From a bacterium (GTDB lineage Bacteria > Krumholzibacteriota > Krumholzibacteriia > G020349025), in contig JANLSU010000081.1 in assembly GCA_031362565.1 (NCBI GenBank), forward strand, positions 59,768 through 123,767: a stretch of 64,000 nucleotides of DNA, in the 5' to 3' direction. Shown here piece after piece: positions 5,107 to 44,292 of this stretch. Made by a program: the position numbers and the translations under genes. Under the pieces are notes generated by a model. The model saw nothing but the letters and a program-made list of their open reading frames with translations. It searched no databases and was not told the DNA's origin. Numbering within the stretch: position 1 is the stretch's first letter; each line of letters begins with the position of its first letter.

Positions 5107-8100
5107 GTGCTGGTACAGCGCTCTCGCGCGTGGGGTCCGGCTATCTGTTGCGGCGTCCTCGGCCTTTTGGGGGCTGCCGGCGGGGCGGCGGCGGCGCCGA
5201 CGTTGACCCGTGGTCCCTTCCTGCAGCAAGTCACGTCGCAAACGGCCCAGGTGGTCTGGCGGACGAGCACCGCGGCGGCCTGTACCTTGACCGCCACTGG
5301 ACCGGCGGGGCCGAGCCTTGCCGTCGCGACACCGTCCGGCACCGAACATGTGGCGGTGCTGGCGGGGCTCCTGCCGGCGACGCGCTACGACTACAGCGTG
5401 CGCTCGAATGGCCTGGTGGCCGGCGGCACCAACTATTTCGTGCAGACGGCGCCGAATCCCGGCACGGGTGCCACGACGCGCTTCCTCATCTTCGGGGATT
5501 CGGGGACCGGCAGCGCGACGCAAACCGCGGTCGCGGCCACGCTCGTCACTCAGACCGCCGATTTCGGCATTCATGTCGGCGACATCATCTATCCGTCGGG
5601 GGAAACGCAGTACTACGACCCGCGTTACTTCCAGCCCTACGCCGCGATGATCCGCCACCTGCCCATCTTCGCCATTCTCGGCAATCATGACGCCGGCAAC
5701 TCCACGTCGTTCTTCGACGCGTGGCATTTGCCGACCAACTCGCTCGACGGCACCGAGCGCTACTACTCGTTCGACTTCGGCGACATCCACTTTGTCGGAT
5801 TGGATACGACGAAGCCGCTCACGTCCGCCATCTTGGCTTGGCTCGCGGCCGACCTCGACGCGTCACCCCGGCGTTGGAAGATGGTGTTCTTCCATCACAC
5901 GATGTACAGCTGTGGTTTGTACCATGGTACGTCGACGTCGTTGGTGAATGCCCTGGCGCCGGTGTTCGAAGCGCACGGCGTCGATGTCGTGTTCTACGGG
6001 CACGACCACCACTACGAGCGCAGCTTCCCGATCCGCGCTGGGGCGGCGCTGCAAACCGCTCTCAACCCGAATTTCGTCAGCCCCGGGGCGCCGATGTATG
6101 TGGTCAGTGGCGCGGCCGGCGCGTCGCGCGATGCAGCCTCCAACTGCTTTTTTACCGCGCGCGCCATCGCGACCCCGTCGTTCGCGCGGGCGAGCGTCAC
6201 GGCCGACCTGTTCACCCTCGAGGCCATCAGCGCCGACGGTACCGTCCTCGATCAGATGACGCTCTCCAAGTCGGGCACGCCGCCGCCGCCACCGCCGGCC
6301 GAAACCGCCAAGGTCTTGTCGCCGAATGGCAGTGAGGTGTGGCTCGCGGGCCAAGCCGCCATGCTGCAGTGGTCGGCGAGCCAGGGCATCGCTGCGGTGC
6401 GGATCGAGTTGTCACGCGCCGGGGCGCAGGGCCCTTGGGAAACGCTGTTTGCATCGACTCCGAATGATGGCGCCGAACCGTGGACGCCGACGGGGCCGGC
6501 GGCGAGCCAATGCTTGCTGCGTGTCGCCGATGCGAGCGACGGATCACCAAGCGACCTCTCGGACGCGGCGTTCCAAATCACCGTGGCGCCGCCGCCGCCA
6601 CCACCACCGCCGTCGGGCATTGTCGCACTCATCAACTTCCAGCCCGATGGCGTGCCCGTGCCGACTGGCTACCAGGTGGATACGGGTGCCATTTTCGACA
6701 CGGTGCGCGGCTATGGGTGGAACACGGCCCAAACGACGCGCGCGCGGGCGCTGCTTCCCGCCGACCCGCGCGACACCTTCGTGGACGTTACCAATACGTC
6801 GACGGCAACGTGGGAAATGGCGCTCGCCAACGGGACGTACTATGTGACGCTCTTGTGCGGCGACGCGCAAACGACGGCGTCGCACCGCGTCGCTCTCGAG
6901 GGCACGACGGTGCTCTTGGATACGAATACGGGCGCCAGTGAATTCTTGCAGCCGTTCGATATTCCCGTAACGGTGCAGGATGGCCGGCTCACCATGACGG
7001 TCGGGGGAAGCGGCGCCTTTTCGCACACGAAGGTCGACGCCATCGTCATTGCCAACGGTGCGGTCGTTTCACTGCCGTATACGCTTTCGACACCGGCACC
7101 GGCGGACGTGCGTTGCATCGGCAGCAGCGCGCCGATTCGCTGGTCTGGCACCGGCGGCACATTGCCGATGCGCGTCGAGCTGTCGCGCGCCGGCCTGGCC
7201 GGCCCGTGGGAACCGGCGGTGATCGTCACGGCCGACGACGGCGAGGAGCTCTGGACGCCGGTGGGGTCACCATCCCCTTGTGGCGCGATGCGCGTGCTCG
7301 ACAGCACGGGACATCTGCTGGCCGCGACCCCCAAACCTTTCGCACTTGGTGCGCCATCATTGCAGCTCCTCGCCCCCAACGGCGGGGAAACGTGGACGGT
7401 GGGGACGGCGCAGTCGTTCGGATGGACGAGCAGTTGCTACGCGGGCAACGTGCGGATCGACGTGTCGATGACGGGCCCGGCCGGTCCGTGGACCACGTTG
7501 ATCGCAACGACCCCCAACGACGGCACCGAGGCCTGGACGGTGCGGCCGGAAGACGCCGGTTCGATCTACGCGCGCATTATCGCTTTGCCCTTCGGCACGC
7601 CCAGCGACGCGAGCGACGCGGCTTTTAGCGTCATCACTCCACAGCCGGCCCCGTCGCAGACCTGGAAGTTCGACTTCACGGTGAACGGCGCGGCACCCGC
7701 CGCCGGCTCCACCGCCGAGACCGGGACGCCCTACAGCGCCGCCCTGGGCTACGGTTGGTTGCAAGCAGTGAGCATGAAGCAACGCAACCTCCTCCCGGGC
7801 GACTGCCGCGACACGTTCGTGCAGGTGACCAACAACACGACGGCCACTTGGGAGTTCGGGTTGCCGAATGGCACCTATAAGGTGTCCCTCACCTGCGGCG
7901 ATCCGCTGACCTCGGGCACCCACCGAGTGGCGCTCGAAGGGCAAGTCGTCGTCGCCGACGTGTTTGCGTCGGGGGGCGAGTATGTGACCCGGACCGATCT
8001 CCCCGTCGTCGTCGCCGATGGGCGCCTCAGCATGAAGCTGGGCGGCAGCGGCCAAATCACCAGCACCAAGGTCGGCTGCATCGAAATTCACTCCGCGGGC

Positions 8101-8442
8101 ACCCCACCTCGCACGGTCCGGCATGGGCCACGTGGCGATCAAGTGCCGGTCATCAGCAGCAGCATCACGCGTACACGGCTCGTGGCGCCCGCGGGGCCGG
8201 TCCACAACGCAGCGCGTTTTGGAATCGAACTCGTGCGCGAAGCCCCGGTGCGGCTTGCCCTCTATGACGTGCGTGGACGCCGGGTCATGACCCTTTTCGA
8301 GGGGCTCTTGCCGGCGGGACGCAGCGACATCACATGGGACACCCTGGACGCGCGGGGACAGCGGCTCGGTTCCGGTGTGTACTTCGCACGGTTCGAGACC
8401 GACGGCGCCAAGGACGCGCAACGCGTCGTCCTCGTTCGCTGA
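5107..8442 (+). CDS. exported multi-domain purple acid phosphatase (calcineurin-like metallophosphoesterase) with CBM-like and Ig-like repeats and a T9SS-type C-terminal domain
   Basis: Signal peptide. PAP N-terminal FN3-like domain. Metallophosphatase motifs GDSG, GDIIY, GNHD, FFHH, GHDHHYER. Two poly-Pro linkers. Internal repeats and a C-terminal sorting domain (listed separately below). Confidence 0.8.
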   Translation: MLVQRSRAWGPAICCGVLGLLGAAGGAAAAPTLTRGPFLQQVTSQTAQVVWRTSTAAACTLTATGPAGPSLAVATPSGTEHVAVLAGLLPATRYDYSVRSNGLVAGGTNYFVQTAPNPGTGATTRFLIFGDSGTGSATQTAVAATLVTQTADFGIHVGDIIYPSGETQYYDPRYFQPYAAMIRHLPIFAILGNHDAGNSTSFFDAWHLPTNSLDGTERYYSFDFGDIHFVGLDTTKPLTSAILAWLAADLDASPRRWKMVFFHHTMYSCGLYHGTSTSLVNALAPVFEAHGVDVVFYGHDHHYERSFPIRAGAALQTALNPNFVSPGAPMYVVSGAAGASRDAASNCFFTARAIATPSFARASVTADLFTLEAISADGTVLDQMTLSKSGTPPPPPPAETAKVLSPNGSEVWLAGQAAMLQWSASQGIAAVRIELSRAGAQGPWETLFASTPNDGAEPWTPTGPAASQCLLRVADASDGSPSDLSDAAFQITVAPPPPPPPPSGIVALINFQPDGVPVPTGYQVDTGAIFDTVRGYGWNTAQTTRARALLPADPRDTFVDVTNTSTATWEMALANGTYYVTLLCGDAQTTASHRVALEGTTVLLDTNTGASEFLQPFDIPVTVQDGRLTMTVGGSGAFSHTKVDAIVIANGAVVSLPYTLSTPAPADVRCIGSSAPIRWSGTGGTLPMRVELSRAGLAGPWEPAVIVTADDGEELWTPVGSPSPCGAMRVLDSTGHLLAATPKPFALGAPSLQLLAPNGGETWTVGTAQSFGWTSSCYAGNVRIDVSMTGPAGPWTTLIATTPNDGTEAWTVRPEDAGSIYARIIALPFGTPSDASDAAFSVITPQPAPSQTWKFDFTVNGAAPAAGSTAETGTPYSAALGYGWLQAVSMKQRNLLPGDCRDTFVQVTNNTTATWEFGLPNGTYKVSLTCGDPLTSGTHRVALEGQVVVADVFASGGEYVTRTDLPVVVADGRLSMKLGGSGQITSTKVGCIEIHSAGTPPRTVRHGPRGDQVPVISSSITRTRLVAPAGPVHNAARFGIELVREAPVRLALYDVRGRRVMTLFEGLLPAGRSDITWDTLDARGQRLGSGVYFARFETDGAKDAQRVVLVR
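6310..6582 (+). repeat. Ig-like ~90-aa repeat copy 1 inside the PAP gene (LSPNGSEVW...VRIELSRAGAQGPWE...TPNDGAEPWTP...SDLSDAAFQI)
   Basis: Three copies share the pattern LxPNGGExW / VRIELSRAGxxGPWExL / TPNDGxExWT / SDxSDAAFxI. Coordinates derived from aa 402-492. Confidence 0.5.
6619..7062 (+). repeat. CBM/malectin-like ~145-aa domain copy 1 (GYGWNTAQTTRARALLPADPRDTFVDVTNTSTATWEMALANGTYYVTLLCGDAQTTASHRVALEG...)
   Basis: Paralogous to the second copy. Shared motifs: GYGW, LLPxDxRDTFVxVTN, TATWExxLxNGTYxVxLxCGD, HRVALEG, DGRLxMxxGGSG, TKVxxIxI. Confidence 0.5.
7114..7350 (+). repeat. Ig-like repeat copy 2 (IRWSGTGGTLPMRVELSRAGLAGPWEPAVIVTADDGEELWTP...)
   Basis: Same motif set as copy 1; aa 670-748. 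Confidence 0.45.
7360..7635 (+). repeat. Ig-like repeat copy 3 (LAPNGGETWTVG...VRIDVSMTGPAGPWTTLIATTPNDGTEAWT...SDASDAAFSVI)
   Basis: Same motif set; aa 752-843. Confidence 0.5.
7660..8100 (+). repeat. CBM/malectin-like domain copy 2 (GYGWLQAVSMKQRNLLPGDCRDTFVQVTNNTTATWEFGLPNGTYKVSLTCGD...HRVALEG...)
   Basis: See copy 1; aa 852-998. Confidence 0.5.
8212..8439 (+). other. T9SS-type / FlgD-Ig-like C-terminal sorting domain (TIGR04183-like) of the PAP
   Basis: RLALYDVRGRRVMTLFEGLLPAGRSDITWDTLDARGQRLGSGVYFARFETDGAKDAQRVVLVR aligns by eye with the C-termini of the heparinase-like and FG-GAP proteins in this window. Confidence 0.55.
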
Positions 8443-9084: not shown

Positions 9085-9669
9085 TTAGTGCAGGCGCGCG
9101 GCGGGTGCGCCCTGGCGCGCTTTCGCATAGCTCCAGCGGCCTAGAATTGCGGCGCCCGCGGCGGCAGCACACAGTGCCGAGCTCCACAGACTGGCGCGTG
9201 CGGCGGCGGACTGCGGTGATGGAATGGCATGTACTGCGCCGCTCACGAGCCGGAAGTAGGGCTGCAACCACTCGGATGCGAGCGCCAACGAACCCGGCGC
9301 GTACTGCGGCAGCCAGGTGGCGAGCACGGCACAGCAGAGAGCAAAGATGAACGCCGGGTCCGTAAGAAGCATCCTCCACCACGACTCAACGATCGGCGCT
9401 TCATCACCGGCACGAAGCGGGATCGCCCGCTGTGCCACACGCGGATCACGGCTTGCGATGCCGGCCGGAGAGGTGATTTGGCCTAGAACTCGCGACGCAA
9501 AACCGGCGGGCGCGTGCGGTGGGCCGGCCGCCAGCGCCGCATCAATGGCGCGCGCCGTGGCAAGTGCGGCGCGGCAATGCTCACACGTCGCGACGTGCAT
9601 TTGCATCGCCGCCGGCGGCTCAGCGCCGCCGGTCGTATCGAGCCACAGTTCGAACCCAGTGCAGTTCAT
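9085..9669 (-). CDS. anti-sigma factor, zinc-binding ZAS type (HxxxCxxC) with transmembrane segments
   Basis: MNCTGFELWLD...MQMHVATCEHCRAALA contains H-x3-C-x2-C. Hydrophobic segments follow. Start ATG overlaps the stop of the upstream ECF sigma gene as ATGA (9666-9669). Confidence 0.5.
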   Translation of the reverse strand: MNCTGFELWLDTTGGAEPPAAMQMHVATCEHCRAALATARAIDAALAAGPPHAPAGFASRVLGQITSPAGIASRDPRVAQRAIPLRAGDEAPIVESWWRMLLTDPAFIFALCCAVLATWLPQYAPGSLALASEWLQPYFRLVSGAVHAIPSPQSAAARASLWSSALCAAAAGAAILGRWSYAKARQGAPAARLH

Positions 9670-10244
9670 CGTGCTTCGTCCTCCTGCCAAGCCCGGCGGA
9701 GCGCGGTGCGAGCCCGATGGAGGTGCGTCTTCACGGTGTTCTCATTGAGACCCAAGAGGTGCGCAACGTCCACCACCGAGCGATCCTCGAGATAAAACAG
9801 CGTCACCACGGCCCGCTGCGCCTCCGGAAGCTCCGCCACCAAGCGCTCGATGCGCAAGCGCGTCCGTGCATCCGGCGGTTGGAGCGGCGAAACCGGCTCC
9901 AGCAGCCCGTTGTCCAAACTCGTCTCGCGCTGATCGCGCGCCTTCAATCGCGCCAGCCGGTCGAGGGCACAACGCACCACGATGCGGTGCAGCCAAGTGC
10001 TGAACATGGCGTCGCCACGAAACCGCGGCAAAGCGTTCCAGGCCTTGACGAAAGCATCCTGTGCCACCTCCTCGGCCTCGGGAGCCAGCCGCACGATTCG
10101 GAGTGCGAGCCCGTAGGCGCGGTCCGCGTGCGCGTCCACGAGGGCGCGAAACGCGTCGGCGTCCCCAGATCGGGCTCTTGCGACCATCTGGTGTTCGGAG
10201 CCGGCCGTCCCGGCGGAACACGGCTTCGCACCGGGAGTTTCCAT
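9666..10244 (-). CDS. ECF (sigma-24 type) RNA polymerase sigma factor
   Basis: Region 2 (MVARARSGDADAFRALVDAHADRAYGLALRIV..., FVKAWNALPRF) and region 4 (RAVVTLFYLEDRSVVDVAHLLGLNENTVKTHLHRAR). Start taken at METPGAK (ATG ~10244). An alternative ATG at 10187 would give a 173-aa product. Confidence 0.8.
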   Translation of the reverse strand: METPGAKPCSAGTAGSEHQMVARARSGDADAFRALVDAHADRAYGLALRIVRLAPEAEEVAQDAFVKAWNALPRFRGDAMFSTWLHRIVVRCALDRLARLKARDQRETSLDNGLLEPVSPLQPPDARTRLRIERLVAELPEAQRAVVTLFYLEDRSVVDVAHLLGLNENTVKTHLHRARTALRRAWQEDEAR

Positions 10245-10467
10245 TGCTGCATTGGACGGGACGCGGGCCCCGCGAGGTTTCAAGGGTTCTGCCGACCCCG
10301 CGCCCTCCGCAACGCCCGCCGGCCATCCAACCCTCGCGCGCCCCGCACCCGAAAACTGAAACCGCGCGCCGCCCGGTGCCCGTCCAAGAAGACGTGCGGC
10401 GGGGACGCGCTCCGCCCGATCGTGCTCATCCGGCGCCTCTGGCGCGGAAACCGGGAGATCTGCAGCC

Positions 10468-10875
10468 ATGGGTGATTTCAAGTTCCTGTTGCTCATCCTG
10501 CCTATCATAGGCGTATTCGGCGGACTGACGCTCGGCGTCGTTCGCACCGTGGGGCGCCAGCGTCAAATCGAACTGTTGCAACGCGAGCGCATCGCCGCCA
10601 TCGAGCGCGGCATCGATCCCAAGATTCTGCCGACCCTCGGGGGCATGGGCCAGGATTTGGACGCCCTGCAGTCCGAGTTCGACCCGAACCGCCGGTTGCC
10701 GCGTCAGTTGCTGGTCGCGGGGGTGCTCACCCTCTTCATGGCGGCGGGCTTGACGACCGTCTTCCTGATCACTGAAGAACAAGGCAAGTCTTGGGCGATC
10801 GGCATCGTGCCTGGGGCGCTCGGCCTCGGTTTGATCGTGTCGTCGTGGCTCGTGCAGCCCCGCGGCCCGCGCTAA
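10468..10875 (+). CDS. small membrane protein (2 predicted TM helices), hypothetical
   Basis: 135 aa. GGGAG about 10 nt upstream of the ATG. GC3-rich codons. Hydrophobic N- and C-terminal segments with a charged helical middle (IELLQRERIAAIERGIDPK). Divergent from the ECF sigma gene. Confidence 0.4.
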   Translation: MGDFKFLLLILPIIGVFGGLTLGVVRTVGRQRQIELLQRERIAAIERGIDPKILPTLGGMGQDLDALQSEFDPNRRLPRQLLVAGVLTLFMAAGLTTVFLITEEQGKSWAIGIVPGALGLGLIVSSWLVQPRGPR

Positions 10876-10884
10876 GCGCGCGTC

Positions 10885-13680
10885 CTACGGCCGCCGGTAG
10901 GCGCGCGCAGTGGGGCGGAACGGACGGGTAAACCACTCGGGGCGCCGCAGGCCGTCGGCGCGCGGTTTGACGGTCGCGAGCGCCAGCCACTCGTGATACG
11001 CCTGCATCGAGGCGGCAGTGTCGACTTCCACATCGCCATAGCGATCGTCCCGTTCGGCGCGCGTCACCGTGACCTTTTGATGCCAACAGTGCATGCCGGA
11101 AATGGGATCGGGTTGCACCGCGAACGTCAGGTTCTGATGCACACCACCATCCGTCCACCACACGCGGCTCGAATCGGGATCTTCGGACTTGAACGGCTTG
11201 ATGTCGCCCGTGCGGCGCACGCGCCAGCGGCCGGGACCCGGTTGTTCGATGCGCACCGGCGGCGCCGCCCAACGATCGGTACCCGGCTGGCCCTCGAGCC
11301 GCCAGCGCCCGAGATGATGTGAACACGCGATCACGCCCGGCCGGATCCCTTCGGTCACCCAGGCCTTGTTGACGAAGAACCCGATGCGCGTTGCGACGCG
11401 CACCAGATCCCCGGTCGCGACTCCCACGTGCGCCGCATCTTGGGGGTGAATCCACACCGGATTGCGGTTCGAGAGTTCATACAGCCATTTGGAATTCCCC
11501 GACCGCGTGTGAATCAGCGTCGGCAAACGGAATGTCGGCACGAGAACGAATTCGTTGCGCGCCCGGTCGAGCGTCGAGGGATGCACGTGACTCCGGATGT
11601 AGCCCGGCAGCACGGCATCCGAATATCCCCAATCGTCCATCGTCGGCGAAAAGAACTCGAGTTTGCGGGACGGTGTTTCGAAGCCGATCGCCGGTGCGCC
11701 GCGCGATTGCACCGCAATCGCCTTACCGTCGCGCGACCACACGCCGCGTTCCATATCCAGCGTCGCGCCCGCAACATCCGCCGGTGCGGTATGTGTGCCG
11801 TACACCACCGGCTCGACCTCGAACGCACCGTGGCGCCGCATGTATTCGAGCGGCGTCACCGCCTCGCGGGCCGCAGCCGCCGGCAGGCCCGGCACCGCGT
11901 TTTCGAAGATCCACCGGTACTGTTCCTCGACGGTCAAGCGTTCCCCCGGCCGGTACGGCGATTCGAAGTACTGCCGCACCCCAAGACTGCCATCCGGATC
12001 CACCGCCCACGAGAGCGCAATCCAGAACTCGTCCTCTTCCCAGACTTCGCCCGGGTTCGCCTGCCAGGTCCACTCGAACGTCTCGCCGGCGCGCTCGCGC
12101 GCCACGCGCTGCACCGGCTGCCGGAAGCCGATCCAGCGCGACGCATGCGTTTCCTGGCTCATGAGATCGTGGCGCTCGGGTCCCAATCCCATCGGCAATA
12201 CGTAGTCGGCAAAGAGTGCTGTCTCGCTCCACACCGGCGTCAGTGCGGCGTGCAGGCCGATCTTCGATTCGTCCTGCAACACTTCCATCCAGGTGAAACC
12301 ATCGGGATTGGTCCACACCGGGTTGTAGACGCGCGTGAAGTAGACGTCGACCTTGCCGCGGCCTTCCTTCAAGAAGTGCGGCAAGAGAAACGACAGTTCG
12401 TGATGCGACAGCGGCCACTCCGGGGGGAAGAGCAATTCGCTCCACACGTCCTGCGGCGGCGGCTTGCGCCAGCGCGCCGGCACGAACTTGTTCGCTGTGT
12501 GTTGCGAGGTACCGCCCGGCGTATTCACCGAACCCGTGAGCACGGTGAGAAACTGCAAGCAACGCGCTACCTGCCAGCCGCCGCGATTCCCGGATGCGGC
12601 GTTGCGCCACACGTGCGACGCGAAGGCGCCGCGGGCGCGGCCGATCTCGCGCCCCACGTCCCGCACGACATCAGCCTCGACGCCGCACTCTTCCGCCACC
12701 CACTCGGGCGTGTAGCGCGCGTACTCGGCGCGCAGCAGGGCGCGGAACGCTTCGAAAGTCGCCGGCTCACCCGGTTGGCGCACCGCGAGCCATGCATCCC
12801 AATTGACCCACGTGCGCATGAACTCGAGGTCTTCCAAGCCTTCCGCCAAGATGACGTGCGCGAAGCCGAGGAGCAGTGCCGCTTCGCTTCCCGGATGCGG
12901 CGCAATCCACCAGTCGCTCATGGATGCGGTATTCGACAAACGAATGTCGACGGTGGCGATCTTGCAGCCCGCATTCTTGGCATCCAGAATGCGCTGCGCT
13001 TGTGGATTGAAGTAGTGGCCGGCCTCCAAGTGCGCCGACAAAAGTAGAATGAACTTGGCGTTCGCGTGATCTGGCGACGGCCGATCGCTCCCCGACCACA
13101 ATTCATAGCCCAAGCGCGCCGCCGCCGAGCAGACGTTGGTGTGGCTGTTGTGGCCGTCCACACCCCATGCCTGCAGAATGCGCTCCATGGCGCCATCGTG
13201 CCCCGGGCGGCCGACGTGGTACATCACTTCGGTACGGCGATTCTCGACCAAGGCCTTGCGAATGCGCGCCGCGAAGGTCGCGATGACCTCGTCCCAAGTT
13301 GTCCGCTCCCACTGACCCGATGCCCGCGGCCCAACGCGCTTCAGGGGATAGAGAATGCGCTCCGGATCGTCGACTTGATTGAGCGTCGCCGGGCCCTTGG
13401 CGCAGTTGCGGCCGCGCGAACCCGGGTGGTACGGATTGCCTTCCAGCTTGCGAATCTTGTTGGTCTCGCGGTCGACATAGGCCACGAGACCACACGCCGC
13501 CTCGCAGTTGAAGCAGATCGTCGGTACCAGCCGGTAGTGATGCTCGACGCGCCGCGGCCACGCCTTGGGATCGTATTCGACCCAATCGTCCCAGCGATCG
13601 CGCGGTGGAAACGATTCCAGCTTGGTCACTTGCCAGGCCGCACCCGACGGCGCGACGGCGGAATCTTCGGTTGGCTTCAC
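10885..13680 (-). CDS. molybdopterin (bis-MGD) oxidoreductase catalytic subunit, PsrA/PhsA/TtrA-like, no recognisable TAT signal
   Basis: 931 aa. N-terminal 4Fe-4S motif ICFNCEAACGL...NCAKG. Sequence along the length is MopB-superfamily-like. N-terminus MKPTEDSAVAPSGAAWQV lacks an RRxFLK twin-arginine motif. Start overlaps the upstream gene stop (ATGA at 13677-13680). Confidence 0.85.
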   Translation of the reverse strand: MKPTEDSAVAPSGAAWQVTKLESFPPRDRWDDWVEYDPKAWPRRVEHHYRLVPTICFNCEAACGLVAYVDRETNKIRKLEGNPYHPGSRGRNCAKGPATLNQVDDPERILYPLKRVGPRASGQWERTTWDEVIATFAARIRKALVENRRTEVMYHVGRPGHDGAMERILQAWGVDGHNSHTNVCSAAARLGYELWSGSDRPSPDHANAKFILLLSAHLEAGHYFNPQAQRILDAKNAGCKIATVDIRLSNTASMSDWWIAPHPGSEAALLLGFAHVILAEGLEDLEFMRTWVNWDAWLAVRQPGEPATFEAFRALLRAEYARYTPEWVAEECGVEADVVRDVGREIGRARGAFASHVWRNAASGNRGGWQVARCLQFLTVLTGSVNTPGGTSQHTANKFVPARWRKPPPQDVWSELLFPPEWPLSHHELSFLLPHFLKEGRGKVDVYFTRVYNPVWTNPDGFTWMEVLQDESKIGLHAALTPVWSETALFADYVLPMGLGPERHDLMSQETHASRWIGFRQPVQRVARERAGETFEWTWQANPGEVWEEDEFWIALSWAVDPDGSLGVRQYFESPYRPGERLTVEEQYRWIFENAVPGLPAAAAREAVTPLEYMRRHGAFEVEPVVYGTHTAPADVAGATLDMERGVWSRDGKAIAVQSRGAPAIGFETPSRKLEFFSPTMDDWGYSDAVLPGYIRSHVHPSTLDRARNEFVLVPTFRLPTLIHTRSGNSKWLYELSNRNPVWIHPQDAAHVGVATGDLVRVATRIGFFVNKAWVTEGIRPGVIACSHHLGRWRLEGQPGTDRWAAPPVRIEQPGPGRWRVRRTGDIKPFKSEDPDSSRVWWTDGGVHQNLTFAVQPDPISGMHCWHQKVTVTRAERDDRYGDVEVDTAASMQAYHEWLALATVKPRADGLRRPEWFTRPFRPTARAYRRP

Positions 13681-15176
13681 GAGATCGCCACCGCCTGTCC
13701 GGCGCGAATCCAGGCGCGCTCATAGAGCAGCAAGGCAAAGGTCGCAAGTGTCGCGGCGAGCGCGCCGCAAACCGCCGCCGGCACCGGGCCCGACAGCACC
13801 ATGTGCCCCGTCCCCAGCATCGCCGCACCGGCTAGGAAAAGCGGCAGTTGCGATTTCATGATGGCGCGCCCGAGATACACCTGTGCCTTGCGCGCATCGG
13901 TGGTGCGCGGCCGGTGGCGTAATTCGCCGCCAAGCACCAGCGTGTTGACGAGCGACAACGCCGCCAAAAGCGCCCCCGCCGTATGCAGCACTCCCGGCGC
14001 ACCGGGCAGCACGACGGCCACGGCTGCGCCGAGGAACGCAGCGCGCAGGACGAGCCGCGTGAACAAACCGCGCTCCAACCACAGATCGCGGCCACGACAC
14101 TGGGCGAACAACCAAGCGCTGTAGCCCGAAACCAAAATCCCGAGTGGTACTCCGAGCCAACGCGCTACATCGGCGAGCATGCCTTGGCCCAGAACGCGCA
14201 GAACGAGCGATGCGCTCGTCGTCGCGCCAAACGCCATCAGCACCCAAGCGCCCTTGACGAGCCATGATTTCGTATTCGGCCGCAAGACGAGGCGCCAAAA
14301 ACGCTCCGGCCGCCCCAAGTCATGAATCAACAGCACGCTCGTGATCGCCGTGAACAGGAGTGCGACGACCTCTGGCACGTAGTCACGCGCCGCCCCCGCA
14401 CGCACGCCCAAAAGCCCCAAGAACGGTGCGACCAGCGCCGCGCCGGCGGCGATGTTCTTGGTGACGAGATATGTCCAGACATGCCAGCCCCACTGTGGCG
14501 CGTGTCCGACATCGAGCGTCGTCGTGACATCGGGAACGGGGTCGAGCCCGGCGACGCGCGGCGGCGGCGGCGTAGCGCGATCCGACCACAGCCAGGCGGC
14601 AGGTTCGGCGGCCGCGCCGGGCACGAGCGCTTCCGGCAGCGCATCGATGTACCACACCCGCGGCCCGGTGCCCTTTTCGAGCCGGCGGCGGCTCGTGGGC
14701 TCGTCCTGAATGAGGCGCGCGATCTTCGATTCGGGATCACTCACATCTCCGGAGACGATGGCTTCCGCCGGGCAGACGATGACGCACGCCGGTTCGAGAC
14801 CCAGTTCGGTGCGATGCGCGCAGTAGTGGCACTTTTCCGCCACGCCCGTGTCGGGATGGAAGTAGAGCGCGTCATACGGGCACGCTTGCATGCACGCGCG
14901 ACAGCCGATGCACTTGTCACGGTCGAGATCGACGATCGCATCCGGGCGCTTGTTCAACGCATTCACGGGGCAAATCTCGACGCACGGCGCGTGGTCGCAT
15001 TGATTGCAACGCAGCACCGTGAAGTGCCGGCGGACCGACGGAAACGTGCCCTTTTCGACGTACTTGACCCAAGTGCGGAAGCTGCCGAGCGGGACCTCGT
15101 TCTCCTGCTTGCAGGCGACAGTGCAAGCGTGGCAGCCGATACACTTCCGTTGGTCGATGACGAAGCCGACCTGCAT
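13677..15176 (-). CDS. fused 4Fe-4S ferredoxin (PsrB/HybA-like) + NrfD/PsrC-like polytopic membrane subunit
   Basis: Internal ATG at 15174-15176 (MQVGFVIDQRKCIGCHACTVACKQEN...) chosen over the long upstream extension. Four Cys clusters (CIGCHAC, CNQCDHAPC, CIGCRACMQACP, CHYC...CVIVCP) followed by about 8 hydrophobic helices (NrfD-like). No signal peptide. Confidence 0.8.
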   Translation of the reverse strand: MQVGFVIDQRKCIGCHACTVACKQENEVPLGSFRTWVKYVEKGTFPSVRRHFTVLRCNQCDHAPCVEICPVNALNKRPDAIVDLDRDKCIGCRACMQACPYDALYFHPDTGVAEKCHYCAHRTELGLEPACVIVCPAEAIVSGDVSDPESKIARLIQDEPTSRRRLEKGTGPRVWYIDALPEALVPGAAAEPAAWLWSDRATPPPPRVAGLDPVPDVTTTLDVGHAPQWGWHVWTYLVTKNIAAGAALVAPFLGLLGVRAGAARDYVPEVVALLFTAITSVLLIHDLGRPERFWRLVLRPNTKSWLVKGAWVLMAFGATTSASLVLRVLGQGMLADVARWLGVPLGILVSGYSAWLFAQCRGRDLWLERGLFTRLVLRAAFLGAAVAVVLPGAPGVLHTAGALLAALSLVNTLVLGGELRHRPRTTDARKAQVYLGRAIMKSQLPLFLAGAAMLGTGHMVLSGPVPAAVCGALAATLATFALLLYERAWIRAGQAVAIS

Positions 15177-15347
15177 GACGCTCCCTGGCTCGGGAAGCGG
15201 CCAGCATGTCACGCGCGTTGCGTCAGTGTCAATTCGGTGCTGGGTGAACCGTGCGATGCGTCCGGACTTGACGCGACGCGCGCCGCCGCTAAGAATCGCG
15301 GTTGCGGCCTTGGAAAGCCGCGCGGCCGCCTTGACGAAGGAGAACCC

Positions 15348-16433
15348 ATGGTTTCGCGCCGAGGCCTCGTGATGATGTGGTGCGTGGCAAGCGCCACCGG
15401 AATGACTCTCGCCCGCACGGCGGCCGCGCAGCCGAGCGTCACGGCAGCGCCGATTCCACTCGGCCTTCTCGAGGACGAGCGCAACACGATCGCGGTCTTC
15501 CGACGCTGCTCCAGGTCGGTCGTCTTCATCGTCAATGCCCGAACCCGGCGTGACATCTTCACGTTGAACGCGGTCGAAGTCCCGCAGGGCTCCGGCTCCG
15601 GCTTCGTGTGGGACACTCTCGGCCACGTCGTGACCAACTTCCACGTCGTGCAGGGCGGCGATGCGTGGAGCGTGACGCTCTCCGACGGCAAGCGCTATGA
15701 CGCCGAACTGGTGGGAGCGGAGCCCAACAAGGACTTGGCGGTCTTGCGCATCAAGGCGCCGGCATCCGCCCTGGTAGCGCTCGATCTCGGCAATTCCGAA
15801 GGCCTCGTGGTGGGACAGAAGGTCCTCGCGATCGGCAATCCGTTCGGGTTGGATCAGACGCTCACGACGGGCGTCATCAGCGCCCTCGGCCGGGAAATCA
15901 AGTCCGTCGCTGGAACGACTATTTCTGACGTCATTCAAACGGATGCGTCGATCAATCCGGGGAACTCCGGCGGGCCATTGCTCGATTCACCCGGCCGGCT
16001 CATTGGATTGAATACCGCGATCTACAGCCCGAGCGGTGGAAGCGCCGGCATCGGCTTCGCGGTGCCGGTCGCGACCATCAAGCGCGTCGTGCCGCAGATC
16101 TTGGAGTTCGGGCACGTCAAGCGTGCGGGCCTCGGCGTGACGCCGCTCGCGGACGGCGTGTCGCGGCAGTACGGGATCGACGGGGTCGTGATCCGCGATG
16201 TGGCGCGCGGCGGCGCCGCGGCCCGCGCCGGACTGCGCGGGTTGCAAGTGGACCGCTTCGGCAGCGTGATCCTGGGCGACATCATCATCGGCATCGATGA
16301 TCGCGAGATCCACACCTTCGACGACATGTACCAAGCGCTCGACCGCCGGCATGCCGGTGATCACGTGCGCGTGCGCTTGCGCAACGATCGTCGGGAACGC
16401 GCCGTGGATCTTGTGTTGCAGGAGCTCGACTGA
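15348..16433 (+). CDS. HtrA/DegP-family periplasmic serine protease with PDZ domain
   Basis: AAGGAGAA SD 5 nt before ATG 15348. Signal peptide. Catalytic triad context: HVVTNFHVV, DLAVLRI, GNSGGPL. C-terminal PDZ region. The 5' 342 codons of the 703-aa track ORF are antisense to the NrfD gene and were discarded. Confidence 0.85.
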   Translation: MVSRRGLVMMWCVASATGMTLARTAAAQPSVTAAPIPLGLLEDERNTIAVFRRCSRSVVFIVNARTRRDIFTLNAVEVPQGSGSGFVWDTLGHVVTNFHVVQGGDAWSVTLSDGKRYDAELVGAEPNKDLAVLRIKAPASALVALDLGNSEGLVVGQKVLAIGNPFGLDQTLTTGVISALGREIKSVAGTTISDVIQTDASINPGNSGGPLLDSPGRLIGLNTAIYSPSGGSAGIGFAVPVATIKRVVPQILEFGHVKRAGLGVTPLADGVSRQYGIDGVVIRDVARGGAAARAGLRGLQVDRFGSVILGDIIIGIDDREIHTFDDMYQALDRRHAGDHVRVRLRNDRRERAVDLVLQELD

Positions 16434-20342: not shown

Positions 20343-21785
20343 TCACGGCCCGTAGAGGGCCTGCAACACCGGCGGGTCCGGCTCTTCGACTGCGAGCACG
20401 GAATGGCACGTGCTGCAATCCTGGCTGATCGTGCGGCCAGCGCTCGAGCGGTGTCCATCGTCGTGACAACGGAAACAACCGCTGTCGTCCTGGTGTCCCA
20501 ACATACTTGGATGCACCGCCCAGCCGACGTTCATGTCCGGAAACACATTGCGCTGGTAGATTGCCCGCAATGCCGTTGCCGCGGCGGTGATGTCCGCGGC
20601 GCGGGCGGTCACGAGCGACGGATCGGTGCGGCCGTAGAACGCCCGCAGCGAATCCTCGAAACCAGCCAGCGCCGCTTGCTTGCTCGGGTAGTCCGCTTGC
20701 AAGAGGCGCATCGCCTCGCGCTTGACGGACGGCAGGTCACGCGGAATGCGCCGCGCCTCGAGCGCCGCATCCAAGGCGGCCGCGGGCAGCTCGAATTCGT
20801 GTGATGGACGGTTGTGACAATCGATGCAGTCCATGCGCCGCTTCGGCAACGCCAGGATGCTGTCTTTGCGCGCCTCGTCACCGCCGCGCCAGTATTCGCG
20901 CACCGCGCCGGTGGAATCTTCGACGCTGATCCAATGGATCGTTCGCCGGTCGGGGCTCGAACGGTACTCGACGTGGCTCATGGTGTGCCAATGAATGCCG
21001 GTTGCGAAACCGGACTGCGGCTTGCCACCGCCGACTTTGAGCAAGAGCACGGTCGCCTGGCGGGTGTTGGCCGCGTCCTCGGAATAGCGGCGCAGAACCT
21101 TGATTCGATCGCCGTGAAATTTCTCCGGCCAGTGGCATTTCTCGCATGTCTCGCGCGCCGGCCGCAAGTTGGCGATCGGCGCCGGGATCGGTTTTGGGTA
21201 GGTGTGAAGCGTGACCGCCGCCACCTGACGCAGTCCTGAAAGTTTCGATTTCACAAACCAACTCGCACCCGGGCCGATGTGGCACTCCGTGCAGGACACG
21301 CGCGAGTGCGACGAGTTTTGATAAGCGGTGTACTCGGGTTCCATCACCGTATGGCATACCTTGCCGCAGAACTGCGGCGACTCCATGTATTCGACTGCAT
21401 GGTAGCTGCTGAGCGCCAGCACGATGACGTTGATCCCGGTCAAGGACAGCAGGATGACGATGCGGCGGTGGTCGAGACGCAGCGGCAGTGCGCCGTCGCC
21501 CGCACCGCGACGGCGGTTGCGCGCCACCGCCACCGCGATCAACAGCAATCCGGCGATGAAGACGCCGGGCAGGACGAGGAAGGCGAAAATTCCCGTGTAC
21601 GGCGGCAAGCTCTCGATCGTCAGCACCAGGATCATCAGCACGACGATGCCAATCGCCGACACCGTCACGAGCGCGATCGCGAACAGCCCCAAAAGGCTCC
21701 GTGACCCTACCGCAACCATCTCACGGATCGTTTTCCACATGGCGCGCATCATACCAAAGGACCCGATGCAGATGTCGCGCCGCAT
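20343..21785 (-). CDS. membrane-anchored multiheme cytochrome c (6 CXXCH; NapC/NirT/NrfH-like fold likely)
   Basis: Two N-terminal TM helices, then CGKVCH, CTECH, CEKCH, CIDCH, CFRCH, CSTCH. Start uncertain (ATG candidates at ~21785, 21752, 21740). Confidence 0.75.
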   Translation of the reverse strand: MRRDICIGSFGMMRAMWKTIREMVAVGSRSLLGLFAIALVTVSAIGIVVLMILVLTIESLPPYTGIFAFLVLPGVFIAGLLLIAVAVARNRRRGAGDGALPLRLDHRRIVILLSLTGINVIVLALSSYHAVEYMESPQFCGKVCHTVMEPEYTAYQNSSHSRVSCTECHIGPGASWFVKSKLSGLRQVAAVTLHTYPKPIPAPIANLRPARETCEKCHWPEKFHGDRIKVLRRYSEDAANTRQATVLLLKVGGGKPQSGFATGIHWHTMSHVEYRSSPDRRTIHWISVEDSTGAVREYWRGGDEARKDSILALPKRRMDCIDCHNRPSHEFELPAAALDAALEARRIPRDLPSVKREAMRLLQADYPSKQAALAGFEDSLRAFYGRTDPSLVTARAADITAAATALRAIYQRNVFPDMNVGWAVHPSMLGHQDDSGCFRCHDDGHRSSAGRTISQDCSTCHSVLAVEEPDPPVLQALYGP

Positions 21786-22013
21786 TTTGATGACGACATC
21801 GTCATTTTTCGGCACCGTCGCCGGTGCGATGACTCTCAACGCATGCAAATTGTCGTTTGAGGCGCGAAAAAGCCGCGATTCCTTCTCTCCACGGCGGCCG
21901 GTTCCGGTATGCTCATTGCGTCGTTCGTACATGAACGGTATGAAGGAACGGCGATCACGCGGACAAATGTGCGTGCGCTGTCCGTACCAGAGGCTGAAGG
22001 GTGGCGTGTGCAG

Positions 22014-22568
22014 ATGAAGCGAAGGGCGTACGTGCGAGCTGCGAGTGTGGCGGTGCTGTGCATCGCGGCGTTCGCAGGGCGGGCGGCTGCCGAGGGTGCC
22101 GCAGTCCACAAGTATATCGGCGCCGAGAAATGCGCCCTGTGTCACAAATCCGAAGCCAAGGGCAATCAGTACGGCAAGTGGCTCACGACCGCACATGCGA
22201 AGGCGTGGGCAACGCTCGCCAGCCCCAAGGCCCTCGAGATTGCCAAGAAAAAGGGCATCACGACGCCGCCCCAACAAACGGACGCCTGCGTCAAATGCCA
22301 CGTCGCCGGTTTTGGACAGCCGGCGGCGATGTTCGACGCGAGTTTCAAGAAAGAGCTGGGCGTGCAATGTGAGGTCTGTCACGGACCGGGCAGCGACTAC
22401 AAGGGTATCAGCGTCATGAAGGACAAGACTGCAGCGATCGCGGCCGGGCTCCTCGTGCCGGACGAGTCGACGTGCAAGAAGTGTCACAACGCCGAAAGCC
22501 CGACGTTCACGACCTTCGACTATAAGGCGATGTACGCCAAGATCACCCATCCGCGTCCAAAGACGTAG
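22014..22568 (+). CDS. secreted tetraheme cytochrome c
   Basis: Signal peptide MKRRAYVRAASVAVLCIAAFAGRAAAEG. CALCH, CVKCH, CEVCH, CKKCH within 184 aa. Confidence 0.75.
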   Translation: MKRRAYVRAASVAVLCIAAFAGRAAAEGAAVHKYIGAEKCALCHKSEAKGNQYGKWLTTAHAKAWATLASPKALEIAKKKGITTPPQQTDACVKCHVAGFGQPAAMFDASFKKELGVQCEVCHGPGSDYKGISVMKDKTAAIAAGLLVPDESTCKKCHNAESPTFTTFDYKAMYAKITHPRPKT

Positions 22569-22708
22569 TCCCAAAGCCGGTGCGCGCGCCAAGGGCATCG
22601 TTCCCTTGGCGCACGCACGCGGTGCGGAGAGTTTGCTACACTCCTCGGTGTTCCCTTTGGATCCTTGGCCGTGAGGGCCTACGGGCGGACCGCACCGAGG
22701 CAAAGCGC

Positions 22709-25249
22709 ATGCGAACCCTAATTCTCGTCTTTCTGACCTGCGGGCTTTGGAGCCGTCCCGCGCCGGCAGAAGACCTGTACGTGGGGCACCCCAAACTGCT
22801 CTTCACGGCCGCCGATGTGGCGGGATTACGCGCCAAGGTGGCCGATGGCGGCGCCGACGACGCCACCTACGCCGCAATGCGCACCTGGGCCCAAGGGGCG
22901 CTGGCTTTTCCGACGACCTCCCTGCTCTCCTACGCTGAAGGCATCTCGGCGACCGGACAAATGGCTCTGGTGTCGCAGATCGAGACCAACGGCGCGGCGT
23001 ACGCGGCCAAAACGCGCCAGCTCGTGCTCGAGGTGGCGCGCAACCGCCCTTCCACCAACGACGAGTTCGCCTCGGGCCTGCGGCTGCAGGTGATGGCGCT
23101 GGGCTATGACCTCGCATTCGCCGGCGCGACGCCGGCCGAACGCGACGAGGTGCGCCACGCGATGCGCGCCGCACTCGACTTCATGCCGCCGCGCTTCAAC
23201 TACTACTGCCAGGCCTACAACCCCTACTGCGGCAACCACGGGATGACGGTCGGAGCTTCGATGGGGCTCGCAGTCATCGCACTCTGGGATGACGTGTCGC
23301 CGGCCGGCCAGGACTCACTCGCAACCGCCTTGGCATTCGCCGATCCCATCATTCAGAAGTGCCTGACGGATATCCTGCCGGACGATGGCGCGTACCGCGA
23401 AGGCGTGCTGTACGCCGGCTGGATCCTGCATGTTACAGCGCCGTACTTCGAAGCCCGGCGCCGCTTCGATGGCACTGATTTCGCCGCCGACCCGCGCTTC
23501 GCGCGCCTGATCGAATGGCTGTGCTACGAACTCGCGCCCGATGGCGGCGGGCGCACGAACAATCTGAACGATTCGCCGTGGTCGTCGCGGCCGTTGGCTC
23601 TCCACGGCACCGTGATCGAATGGGCGCAGACACGGCTCGGCAGCCCGCTCGCGGCGTATCTGCACGACCACGTTCTCGGCAGCTTCGGATTCGACTACGG
23701 ACCGCCGGCCGACCGCCTCGCAACGGTGCTCTGGTGGCAACCCATCGCACCGCTCAACCCCGCGGCACTCCTGCCCTCCGGGCGGCTCTTTCCGTCCCGC
23801 GGCCTGTACTATTTCCGGAACGGCTGGAAGACGGGTGCCAGCGGCGACGAGGTCGTGTTCGCGTTCTCGTCGGGCAAGTTCTATGGCGGGCACGCGCAGG
23901 AAGATCGGAATCAATTCACTCTCGCTGCCTACGGCCAGCGCTTCGTGGTCGATTGCGGCGCCGTCGGCAGCACCGCAACCCCGAAGCAGAGCGAAGCCCA
24001 CAATCTCGTCCTCGTCGATGGCATCGGACAGCACAACGCCGGAAACTCGATCGGCACCGACGGCGCCATCGTCTCGTCCCTGGTATCGGGATTCGCCGAC
24101 TACGTGCGGGGCGATGCACGGGCTGCTTACGCCACCTACAGCGCATTCAACTCCCCCGGCGTGCCGTTCGCGGCCTCCGACTGGAGCTGGGGATACGACG
24201 GCGGCAATCCGCTCGAGCGCGCCGATCGCACCTGCATCGTCGTGAAGGACGGCACCGCGCCGCCCTGGATGCTCGTCGCCGATGACATGCGCAAGGACGC
24301 GGGGTCACATGCGTGGGACTGGCTCCTGCACACGTCACAGGTTCATACGATCGATGTCGCGAGCGACCCGGCGCAGGTGACGGGCTCACAAGCGACGCTC
24401 GACCTTTACTTCGCGCATCCGCGCCCGGCGGACTTGGCGCTTTCGTGGGCGCCGTTCACCCACGGCGGCACCGATCCGCCGACGAATCGCCTTGTCGCGC
24501 ACCACAACGCCGTCGAACCGCGCTTCGCCGTCGCGCTCGTTCCGCGCCGCAACGGCGACGCGGCGCCGCTGTACGCCTCCACCAGCGACAGTGTTTCGAC
24601 GGAGTTGTCGCTCGACTGGGGATCGGCGCGCGACGTCTTGGTTTTCAATCCGCACCGCGTGCGCGTCACGCACGAGATCGACACCGATGGTGTGGCCGCG
24701 TTGGTCCGGCGCGCCGCGGGGGCCGTGCGCGGCTACCTGCTGGCCGACGGCACGTTCATGCGTGAAGGCGGCATCGACCTCGTCGTGCTCGGCGGGGTCG
24801 CATCCGCGGCACTCGCGGGCGATTCGCTCGAACTCTCCAGCGACGATGTGCCGTTCACGGCCTGGGGTCCCGAAGTCGTGGCCGTCCGCGGGCCCTCGGG
24901 CCCGCGCGCCTTCGTGCGGGACGGCGACGTCGTCCGGAATCCAACGGCGACGGACGTTGCAGCCCTCGGGGCGAGCCTGCAAATCGAACCGCTCCGGCCC
25001 CAACCGGCGCGCGGCGGCGCGACGCTGCGTCTCGCGCTCAACCACTCCGCCCGGACTCGAGTGCGGATCGTCGACGCCCGTGGCGGGCTCGTCCGCGATC
25101 TTGGCGAGCGCACCCGTTCAGCAGGTGCCGTCGCAATTCCCTGGGACGGCCGCAGCGCCTCGGGCCGCCCCGTTTCACCCGGCGTCTACTTCTTCGTCAT
25201 CGAGCTGGCCGGACACTCGACGGCCCTGAAGGTCGTGCTGATCCGCTGA
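22709..25249 (+). CDS. exported heparinase II/III-like (polysaccharide lyase-like) protein with T9SS-type C-terminal domain
   Basis: Signal peptide MRTLILVFLTCGLWSRPAPA. Alpha/alpha-toroid-like N-terminal half. Hepar_II_III-like region YYFRNGW...GGHAQEDRNQFTLAAYGQRFVVDCG...EAHNLVLVDG. C-terminal 74 aa (25025..25246) match the shared sorting domain. Confidence 0.6.
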   Translation: MRTLILVFLTCGLWSRPAPAEDLYVGHPKLLFTAADVAGLRAKVADGGADDATYAAMRTWAQGALAFPTTSLLSYAEGISATGQMALVSQIETNGAAYAAKTRQLVLEVARNRPSTNDEFASGLRLQVMALGYDLAFAGATPAERDEVRHAMRAALDFMPPRFNYYCQAYNPYCGNHGMTVGASMGLAVIALWDDVSPAGQDSLATALAFADPIIQKCLTDILPDDGAYREGVLYAGWILHVTAPYFEARRRFDGTDFAADPRFARLIEWLCYELAPDGGGRTNNLNDSPWSSRPLALHGTVIEWAQTRLGSPLAAYLHDHVLGSFGFDYGPPADRLATVLWWQPIAPLNPAALLPSGRLFPSRGLYYFRNGWKTGASGDEVVFAFSSGKFYGGHAQEDRNQFTLAAYGQRFVVDCGAVGSTATPKQSEAHNLVLVDGIGQHNAGNSIGTDGAIVSSLVSGFADYVRGDARAAYATYSAFNSPGVPFAASDWSWGYDGGNPLERADRTCIVVKDGTAPPWMLVADDMRKDAGSHAWDWLLHTSQVHTIDVASDPAQVTGSQATLDLYFAHPRPADLALSWAPFTHGGTDPPTNRLVAHHNAVEPRFAVALVPRRNGDAAPLYASTSDSVSTELSLDWGSARDVLVFNPHRVRVTHEIDTDGVAALVRRAAGAVRGYLLADGTFMREGGIDLVVLGGVASAALAGDSLELSSDDVPFTAWGPEVVAVRGPSGPRAFVRDGDVVRNPTATDVAALGASLQIEPLRPQPARGGATLRLALNHSARTRVRIVDARGGLVRDLGERTRSAGAVAIPWDGRSASGRPVSPGVYFFVIELAGHSTALKVVLIR

Positions 25250-38795: not shown

Positions 38796-39015
38796 ACGCT
38801 CGGCCACTCCAACAGCGTTCCCGGTGTGGCCGCGCCGAGACTAGCAGAAGCCCAGCGATGGGCCCAGCCATGGCGCGACCGCACAGAATCGCACGGGGCG
38901 GCTGGGCGAGCGTGGTGAAGATTGTGCAAAGCCACGGCTGCGGACGGACCTCTCCAGGAGATCCTTTTCCGGGATACCTCAGAGCCTCCCGGGGCTGGCG
39001 CTGAACTTCCCGGCG

Positions 39016-44196: not shown

Positions 44197-44292
44197 TCGG
44201 AGCGGCACATCGCGGGTCGTTGCATCAGGCGTCGAATTCGGCGTCGTTGGATTCAGTGTCACACCTTCAGGAGAGGGGCGCTCCGCGCGCGC

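Follow-up and report, generated by a model that had tools for sequence, protein, structure and literature searches.

A fused iron-sulfur/NrfD-like membrane subunit and its leaderless molybdoenzyme partner in a Krumholzibacteriota contig: a probable cytoplasm-facing sulfite:quinone oxidoreductase of the SoeABC/PSRLC3 type

SoeABC is composed of a cytoplasmic molybdoprotein, a cytoplasmic iron-sulfur (FeS) protein and a membrane anchor that resembles NrfD/PsrC (PMC5114278). An inverted membrane orientation is expected for the anchor, SoeC, and the peripheral subunits are predicted to be cytoplasmic (PMC8076601). The complex co-occurs with Dsr and sHdr as a cytoplasmic sulfite oxidase (PMC6397845), and a passage of PMC8232776, which cites Dahl et al. 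2013, describes the genes of this polysulfide-reductase-like molybdoprotein as universal in purple and green sulfur bacteria. In a green sulfur bacterium, "2 genes encoding PSRLC3" are counted among the dissimilatory sulfur-oxidation genes (PMC5473276), and PSRLC3 has been inferred to be a sulfite oxidase (PMC9324843). Here we describe a two-gene operon on the minus strand, between positions 10885 and 15176, of a 64,000-nucleotide stretch (hereafter the window) of contig JANLSU010000081.1 from a Krumholzibacteriota genome (assembly GCA_031362565.1). It encodes an FeS domain and an NrfD/PsrC-like anchor in a single polypeptide, followed by a bis-molybdopterin guanine dinucleotide (bis-MGD) catalytic subunit. 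We put the probability that this pair is a cytoplasm-facing sulfite:quinone oxidoreductase of the SoeABC/PSRLC3 type, with SoeB and SoeC fused, at roughly 0.6.

A first-pass annotation, made from the sequence of the window, had described a [4Fe-4S] domain fused to an 8-helix NrfD/PsrC-like domain, followed on the minus strand by a 931-aa bis-MGD subunit, and the open reading frames (ORFs), the Pfam matches and the AlphaFold model all agree with this description. By its Pfam domains, cofactor motifs, AlphaFold helices and Foldseek fold, the operon can be assigned as a fused two-gene complex iron-sulfur molybdoenzyme (CISM). The properties that define the CISM, or Mo-bisPGD (DMSO reductase), superfamily are all present: the catalytic domains with the FS0 cluster, the Mo ligand position, a four-cluster FeS subunit and a haem-free 8-helix anchor of the NrfD/PsrC type. 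The features of the operon, each with its basis, are the following.

13677..15176, minus strand: fusion gene, 499 aa, SoeB-like FeS domain plus SoeC/NrfD-like membrane domain (ORF, Pfam, homologs)
14637..15176, minus strand: FeS domain, aa 1-180, without a signal peptide (Cys positions, PDB matches)
14487..14636, minus strand: Pro-rich linker, aa 181-230, between the FeS domain and transmembrane helix 1 (TM1) (conservation, pLDDT)
13677..14486, minus strand: NrfD/PsrC-like membrane domain, aa 231-499, 8 TM helices (AlphaFold, Foldseek)
13677..13680, minus strand: GTGA start/stop overlap of 4 bases, coupling the fusion and catalytic genes (sequence read)
10885..13680, minus strand: bis-MGD catalytic subunit gene, 931 aa, SoeA/PSRLC3-type, without a leader for twin-arginine translocation (Tat) (ORF, Pfam, identity to homologs)
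13516..13626, minus strand: conserved hydrophilic N-terminal extension of the catalytic subunit, aa 19-55 (alignment of 71 N-termini)
13402..13515, minus strand: FS0 [4Fe-4S] motif, C56-x2-C59-x3-C63-x29-C93 (Cys positions, Pfam Molybdop_Fe4S4)
13129..13131, minus strand: codon of Cys184, predicted Mo ligand (aligned with Cys173 of PsrA, 2vpw_A, and the equivalent Cys of ArrA)

The fusion gene starts at the ATG at 15176, 4 nt downstream of a Shine-Dalgarno-like AGGGAG, and the same start, M-x-x-G-F-V-I-D-x-R-K-C-I-G-C, is found in 20 homologs of the family alignment. A 753-aa ORF reaching upstream of this ATG was set aside as a mere open frame in DNA of 66% G+C, the homologs starting at M-x-x-G-F-V-I-D. 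Pfam identifies Fer4_11 at residues 51-144 and NrfD at residues 229-390 (E 5e-11). The 16 cysteines of the FeS domain form four [4Fe-4S] motifs (12/15/18/22, 57/60/65/69, 89/92/95/99 and 116/119/131/135), and its closest matches in the PDB are PsrB (2vpw_B, 3e-46) and ArrB, the latter of which is also paired with the FeS part by Foldseek. The top NCBIfam matches of this domain are TtrB, ArrB, DsrO and NrfC, each below its cutoff. The claim of a 230-aa N-terminal FeS domain lacking a signal peptide needs to be amended in its size: the signal peptide is indeed absent, but the FeS domain covers about 180 aa, and the next 50 or so form a linker that is poorly conserved (column conservation 0.43) and has low pLDDT.

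The AlphaFold model of the fusion protein was built on 20 homologs; its FeS domain is of low confidence and was thus kept out of any judgement on docking. The membrane domain was modeled with high confidence as eight TM helices (231-252, 262-287, 305-328, 332-359, 371-389, 399-420, 444-460 and 464-494), which Foldseek places close to PsrC (2vpw_C) with a TM-score of 0.62; a phmmer search of the PDB with the membrane domain alone gave no match. Within the fusion family, the conserved part of this domain lies in TM1-4 and the cytoplasmic loops (W229, G230, Y236, K240, D286, S304-W305-L306, Y352, R363 and W366). TM6-8 are poorly conserved by column conservation, and a conserved second half-channel finds no support in the conservation of the membrane domain.

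The catalytic gene starts at the GTG at 13680, so that the overlap joining the two genes reads GTGA and not ATGA as first reported. Its product contains Molybdop_Fe4S4 (PF04879, residues 51-103), Molybdopterin (PF00384) and Molydop_binding (PF01568) domains. Directly before FS0 lies an extension of the form L.SFPP.D.WDDW.EYD..AWPRRV..Y.L.PT, which is common to all 71 catalytic homologs recovered from other genomes and may make contact with the FeS or anchor subunit. The best match in a solved structure, for all three modules, is PsrABC of Thermus thermophilus (PDB 2VPW-2VPZ); PsrA matches the catalytic subunit at 6e-32 and the Mo-ligand Cys is kept. The identity between the two is, however, only about 25-30% over the N-terminal half, and PsrABC differs from the window pair in that it is exported by the Tat pathway, faces the periplasm, consists of three separate subunits and has its membrane domain in the opposite orientation.

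Like PsrABC, most characterized molybdoenzymes anchored by NrfD are periplasmic, and Tat leaders are present in close unfused relatives of the window pair. One could, therefore, envision that the module faces the periplasm after all, having been exported by an unrecognized route, for instance by means of a cryptic leader or as a hitch-hiker on another Tat substrate. We consider this extremely unlikely. As the first-pass annotation stated, neither N-terminus in the window has a Tat motif, and its concern that a cryptic leader might be gained from an alternative start was not borne out: the open frame 5' of GTG 13680 is devoid of start codons and extends into the 3' end of the fusion gene, and the N-terminal region of the catalytic subunit is hydrophilic. 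An SRR tripeptide encoded in that frame was rejected as a Tat leader, since no start codon precedes it, no hydrophobic region follows it and it falls within the overlap with the fusion 3' end. Two scans were applied together to the 71 catalytic homologs, because a strict regular expression misses DmsA and a hydropathy rule misses Ala/Thr-rich leaders. The motif [ST]RRxF[LIVM] was found in none of the 71, with the whole upstream open frame scanned, and RR followed by a hydrophobic stretch was likewise found in none by a scan that does pick up those of DmsA and NrfC from E. coli. The absence of a leader in the fused family is meaningful because the closest unfused relatives (32-47% identity) almost all carry textbook leaders of the TRRxFLK type, for example TRRQFLKVGAAATAAA, HRRTFLKAAALTSGAAAA and, in Azoarcus sp. 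KH32C, TRRTFLKASAG. Between the leader and FS0, several Tat-bearing relatives, P0370, P0426 and P0402 among them, contain a shorter YPPFE.W-type motif that resembles the beginning of the extension described above.

The second line of evidence against a periplasmic module is the topology of the anchor, in which the FeS domain lies N-terminal to TM1 with no signal to carry it across the membrane. We aligned 74 fusion homologs, defined the eight helices on the sequence and the AlphaFold model, and mapped them onto the alignment. The side of the membrane that bears the FeS domain (the linker, loops 2-3, 4-5 and 6-7, and the C-terminal tail) has a mean of 15.1 lysine and arginine residues (K+R), as against 1.2 for the other side (loops 1-2, 3-4, 5-6 and 7-8). 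The bias is extreme and its polarity is the same in all 74 homologs; for the window protein the counts are 17 versus 2. In the E. coli NrfD control the polarity is reversed, with 2 residues on the N-terminal side and 8 on the other, and the unfused NrfD of the Tat-type cluster of Azoarcus also has a polarity opposite to that of the fused family. Because of this opposite polarity relative to E. coli NrfD, the anchor appears to be inverted relative to the Nrf/Psr type. The positive-inside rule thus gives a well-supported prediction that the FeS domain, both termini and loops 2-3, 4-5 and 6-7 are cytoplasmic, and the cytoplasm-facing FeS/Mo module proposed at the outset can be retained. We regard a cytoplasm-facing CISM architecture as very likely indeed. 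Through the fusion, the FeS domain is tethered to that face of the anchor at which docking of FeS partners normally takes place.

That this orientation would be unusual, as the first-pass annotation held, does not stand. SoeABC has already been characterized as cytoplasm-facing, with an inverted SoeC predicted, and a relative of the fused pair was found in at least 573 genomes from more than 10 phyla in a scan of one genome per species. A common fusion facing the periplasm had been named as grounds for rejecting the original proposal; the fusion did turn out to be common, but the arrangement is predicted to face the cytoplasm.

The family as a whole is closely knit. Full-length fusion homologs of about 500 aa fall into more than 120 clusters of the protein database at 56-73% identity, many of them from Planctomycetota metagenome-assembled genomes (MAGs), and more than 120 clusters of catalytic homologs are found at 66-82% identity; at 50% clustering, the whole catalytic family collapses to essentially one full-length representative. 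For the examination of gene neighborhoods, all locus counts refer to the best 80 of the at least 573 species genomes. These 80 span Planctomycetota, Acidobacteriota, Methylomirabilota/Rokubacteria, Binatia, Chloroflexota, Actinomycetota, Gemmatimonadota, Bacteroidota, Chlorobiota, Calditrichota, Bacillota and the archaeon Caldarchaeum. The catalytic gene was present on the fetched stretch in 71 of them, nearly always directly downstream of the fusion, and its product is 54-68% identical to the window protein. Plasmid-borne copies occur in cultured Thermomicrobium roseum (60% catalytic identity), Rhodococcus jostii RHA1 (57%) and haloarchaea (51-55%). That the catalytic subunits remain 51-68% identical in more than 10 bacterial phyla, in Caldarchaeum and on haloarchaeal plasmids suggests that constraint is very strong, that the two genes are often transferred horizontally as a cassette, or both. 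No conserved third gene, such as one for a chaperone or a cytochrome, was found at the 80 loci, and the pair is self-contained.

The two genes do not always form an operon, because in some Planctomycetota the catalytic gene is distant from the fusion or undetected near it. In two Planctomycetota MAGs (loci L002 and L005) no catalytic gene was detected on the stretch around the fusion, in agreement with Pfam searches of the larger ORFs. At loci L006 and L007 it lies 3.5-4.4 kb away, and the intervening genes of L007 encode an esterase, a peptidase S9 and a CBS-domain protein.

One connection of the pair to sulfite is its occurrence in green sulfur bacteria. A search with the fusion protein of a Chlorobium MAG identified fusions of 517-523 aa in cultured Pelodictyon luteolum, Chlorobium chlorochromatii, Chlorobium sp. 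N1 and Prosthecochloris spp. The complete genome of P. luteolum has the order fusion, 955-aa MopB, DsrE2-like, rhodanese, TusA, DsrN-like, DsrC, DsrA and DsrB; on a related contig, TauE/SafE genes are inserted after MopB, and in a Chlorobium MAG genes for TauE, DsrE2 and rhodanese lie downstream. Over their full length, the P. luteolum proteins are 60% (catalytic subunit) and 38% (fusion) identical to those of the window. From the two-gene description, and reportedly from Frigaard & Bryant 2008 and Gregersen et al. 2011, the P. luteolum pair is probably the complex named PSRLC3. PSRLC3 and the window pair are alike in having two genes, the fused form and close sequence. They differ in that PSRLC3 of green sulfur bacteria is located directly upstream of TauE, DsrE2, rhd, tusA and dsr genes, whereas the window pair stands alone, in surroundings that are heterotroph-like and of the Planctomycetota type. 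The window pair is thus a member of a family, putatively of the SoeABC/PSRLC3 type, that is widespread, has already been noticed and is carried by green sulfur bacteria. The likeness to SoeABC of Allochromatium vinosum and Aquifex aeolicus extends to the bis-MGD subunit with its N-terminal FeS cluster and no signal peptide, the four-cluster FeS protein and the NrfD/PsrC-like anchor, predicted to be inverted.

The neighborhoods in other phyla were also informative. A sulfur-related gene lies within 8 kb of the pair at 21 of the 80 loci: a persulfide dioxygenase (PDO)-rhodanese fusion at 10, a flavoprotein resembling sulfide:quinone oxidoreductase at nine and YeeE/Sulf_transp at seven, with TusA, rhodanese, DsrE2, TauE and a CsoR/CstR-like regulator also represented. 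CysE is encoded at seven further loci of Acidobacteriota, five of which have CysK as well. The pair on plasmid pRHL3 of R. jostii lies among genes for two hydrolases of the metallo-β-lactamase (MBL) fold, DsrE, TusA, thioredoxin and ArsR-type regulators, and that on the T. roseum megaplasmid is preceded by a CsoR-family regulator. On a contig of Myxococcota UBA796 (L090), a fused version with a catalytic subunit 42% identical to that of the window is preceded by a sigma-54 activator, a PDO-like MBL-rhodanese protein and two Sulf_transp genes, a compact cluster that is apparently sulfide- or persulfide-responsive. These neighbors point to sulfite; such genes make or move cytoplasmic sulfane sulfur and sulfite. 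Together with the PSRLC3/SoeABC match they make sulfite a plausible substrate, and the earlier statement that the substrate is unknown goes too far.

The same neighbors could be read differently. An enzyme of identical cytoplasm-facing architecture might act on another sulfur substrate, as a quinol- or quinone-linked oxidoreductase of thiosulfate, polysulfide or persulfide that serves reactive-sulfur detoxification or sulfur assimilation. Among profiles and structures, the best matches are PhsA, PsrA and TtrB, and the Mo ligand is a Cys as in Psr and Arr; the CstB-like PDO-rhodanese neighbors have thiosulfate among their products, the YeeE/Sulf_transp neighbors are transporters of the thiosulfate type, and CysE and CysK accompany the pair in Acidobacteriota. 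We nevertheless judge this reading rather unlikely. The neighbors in question generate cytoplasmic sulfite, sulfite exporters of the TauE/SafE family are encoded directly downstream in several loci, and the position beside dsrAB in green sulfur bacteria, as well as the assignment in the literature, favors sulfite. Moreover, thiosulfate reduction driven by quinol is endergonic, which weighs against a thiosulfate reductase.

Another possibility is suggested by the names under which close homologs are deposited, some of which are "Nitrate reductase" or "formate dehydrogenase", and by the planctomycete Lacipirellula parvula, in which an operon described as "NapA plus FeS-NrfD fusion", and similar by that description, lies near narK and nirBD (PMC6995999). 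The pair would then be a quinol-dependent cytoplasmic nitrate reductase of the assimilatory type. This is quite improbable, however, given that the NCBIfam scores are far below the cutoffs for NapA (30.7 vs 904), NasC (59.7 vs 1100), NasA (42.7 vs 1000) and NarG (28 vs 1084), that genes for NarK, NirB, NirD and NirC homologs adjoin the pair in none of the 80 genomes and are absent from the window, and that the neighbors recurring across phyla are sulfur-related.

If the pair is a sulfite:quinone oxidoreductase, its mode of action might be as follows. The apo-catalytic subunit would acquire bis-MGD and FS0 in the cytoplasm and remain there without export, docking on the FeS domain, which would be tethered to TM1 of the inverted anchor by the linker of about 50 aa. 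Sulfite would be oxidized to sulfate at the Cys-ligated Mo, and the electrons would pass by way of five [4Fe-4S] clusters to a quinone held within the TM1-4 bundle, close to the cytoplasmic face. We infer that sulfite is the substrate, and likewise the reaction's direction, the quinone acceptor and the location of the quinone site. With sulfate/sulfite at about −516 mV and menaquinone at about −74 mV, the step is strongly exergonic. It is probably electroneutral, because protons would be released and consumed on the same, cytoplasmic, side, and energy would be conserved downstream by quinol oxidation.

Several observations weigh against the assignment to the SoeABC/PSRLC3 type. The first concerns gene organization: SoeABC has three separate subunits and a canonical gene order of A-B-C, whereas in the window SoeB and SoeC are represented by one polypeptide and the order is BC followed by A. 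The second is that the putative link to characterized SoeA (A. vinosum D3RNN8 and the A. aeolicus protein) is an indirect one, running through the homologs of green sulfur bacteria and the literature. NCBIfam has no SoeA model and the PDB no SoeA structure, and no named SoeA emerged from a representative search with cluster look-up or from a tblastn search of plasmids; the latter returned only members of the fused family and Tat-type relatives, and the former unnamed metagenomic proteins. The best named profile matches are instead PhsA (187 vs a cutoff of 694), TtrB (173 vs 416) and ArrB (164 vs 450), with ArrA at 106 vs 1600; all are far below cutoff, no NCBIfam equivalog cutoff is reached by either protein of the window, and PhsA and TtrB are the top scorers. 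The third is context. SoeABC is associated with the sulfite-generating Dsr and sHdr systems, whereas the window pair has no Dsr, Hdr or PDO context, no sulfur-metabolism gene was found in the 64 kb of the window, and about three quarters of the 80 related loci are without sulfur genes. Finally, to our knowledge, the fused form has never been assayed, that of green sulfur bacteria included.

The order BC-A has a parallel in the unfused relatives. Tat-exported FeS-NrfD-MopB-TorD clusters, found on plasmid pAZKH of Azoarcus sp. KH32C, on a Sulfurovum mangrovi plasmid and in metagenomic sequences (P0370 and P0402), share with the window the gene order B, C, A and have a catalytic subunit 32-47% identical to the window protein. 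They differ in that B and C are separate, MopB carries a Tat leader, a gene for a TorD/NarJ-type chaperone follows and NrfD is oriented with its N-terminus outside. One scenario for the origin of the fused form, suggested by gene order and sequence similarity alone, is that it derives from such a Tat-exported B-C-A-TorD ancestor: the adjacent B and C genes would have fused, the leader and chaperone would have been lost and the anchor would have inverted. If so, the fused BC-A enzymes might be a separate clade and not true orthologs of SoeABC, having arisen from a Tat-exported ancestor and spread as a self-contained two-gene cassette over more than 10 phyla of bacteria and archaea, with a role in heterotrophs that do not oxidize sulfur, the window organism included, unlike dissimilatory sulfite oxidation. 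We hold this last proposal to be doubtful.

In the clusters of Azoarcus sp. KH32C (L084, pAZKH 59931-64173) and the S. mangrovi plasmid (L089), as well as in L096, the genes encode FeS, NrfD, MopB with a Tat leader, a TorD-like chaperone and a polyferredoxin, at 33-47% identity. The Azoarcus cluster adjoins genes for a PhnD-like protein, a histidine kinase, a sigma-54 regulator and an ACR3 arsenite pump, and these neighbors suggest an enzyme of the arsenic type.

The main weight of the present assignment lies in annotation, and nothing in it will surprise specialists in sulfur oxidation. In Planctomycetota, Acidobacteriota, Chloroflexota and other phyla, thousands of genes carry the label "4Fe-4S dicluster protein", "nitrate reductase", "formate dehydrogenase" or "polysulfide reductase NrfD"; what they encode is probably a single conserved enzyme that handles sulfite in the cytoplasm. 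If this is true, their re-annotation would alter what metagenomes are taken to say about sulfur cycling and the detoxification of sulfite. The fused family also provides a clean natural case of an inverted NrfD-type anchor, in which the docking face is fixed by the covalent attachment of the FeS domain, and such an anchor could help to test whether NrfD-like subunits translocate protons.

The remainder of the window is unrelated to the operon. Upstream, the fusion gene is separated from a divergent gene for a DegP/HtrA-like protease (15348-16433, plus strand) by the presumed promoter region.

15177..15347, no strand: divergent intergenic region of 171 bp, presumed promoter region (between the operon and the protease gene)

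Promoter and terminator scans of the operon region gave results at chance level, with a lone sigma-70-like match on the plus strand. On the other flank, a gene for a small DUF6249 membrane protein (10468-10875, plus strand) converges on the 3' end of the operon with a gap of only 9 bp, and beside it lie genes for an extracytoplasmic function (ECF) sigma factor (9666-10547, minus strand) and a putative anti-sigma factor (9085-9690, minus strand). At 20343-22703 on the minus strand, 5-9 kb from the operon, is a gene for a large multihaem cytochrome of the NapC/NirT family, adjacent to a small multihaem cytochrome c554-like gene (L001); no link between these cytochromes and the molybdoenzyme operon was found.

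Three large secreted-looking proteins of the window, which are metallophosphatase-like, heparinase II/III-like and of the FG-GAP repeat type, end in a FlgD_ig-type C-terminal domain that is possibly a sorting domain (5107-8442, plus; 22580-25249, plus; 44293-48714, minus). The segment 25186-32069 (minus strand) encodes a CusABC-like heavy-metal efflux system of the resistance-nodulation-division type, consisting of an outer membrane factor, a membrane-fusion protein with a heavy-metal-binding domain and an AcrB-type pump, with an adjacent regulator of the Rrf2 family. Farther along the same strand are a polyphosphate kinase and exopolyphosphatase in tandem (35077-38807) and a pyridoxal phosphate-dependent group II decarboxylase of the glutamate or cysteine-sulfinate decarboxylase type (42727-44262).

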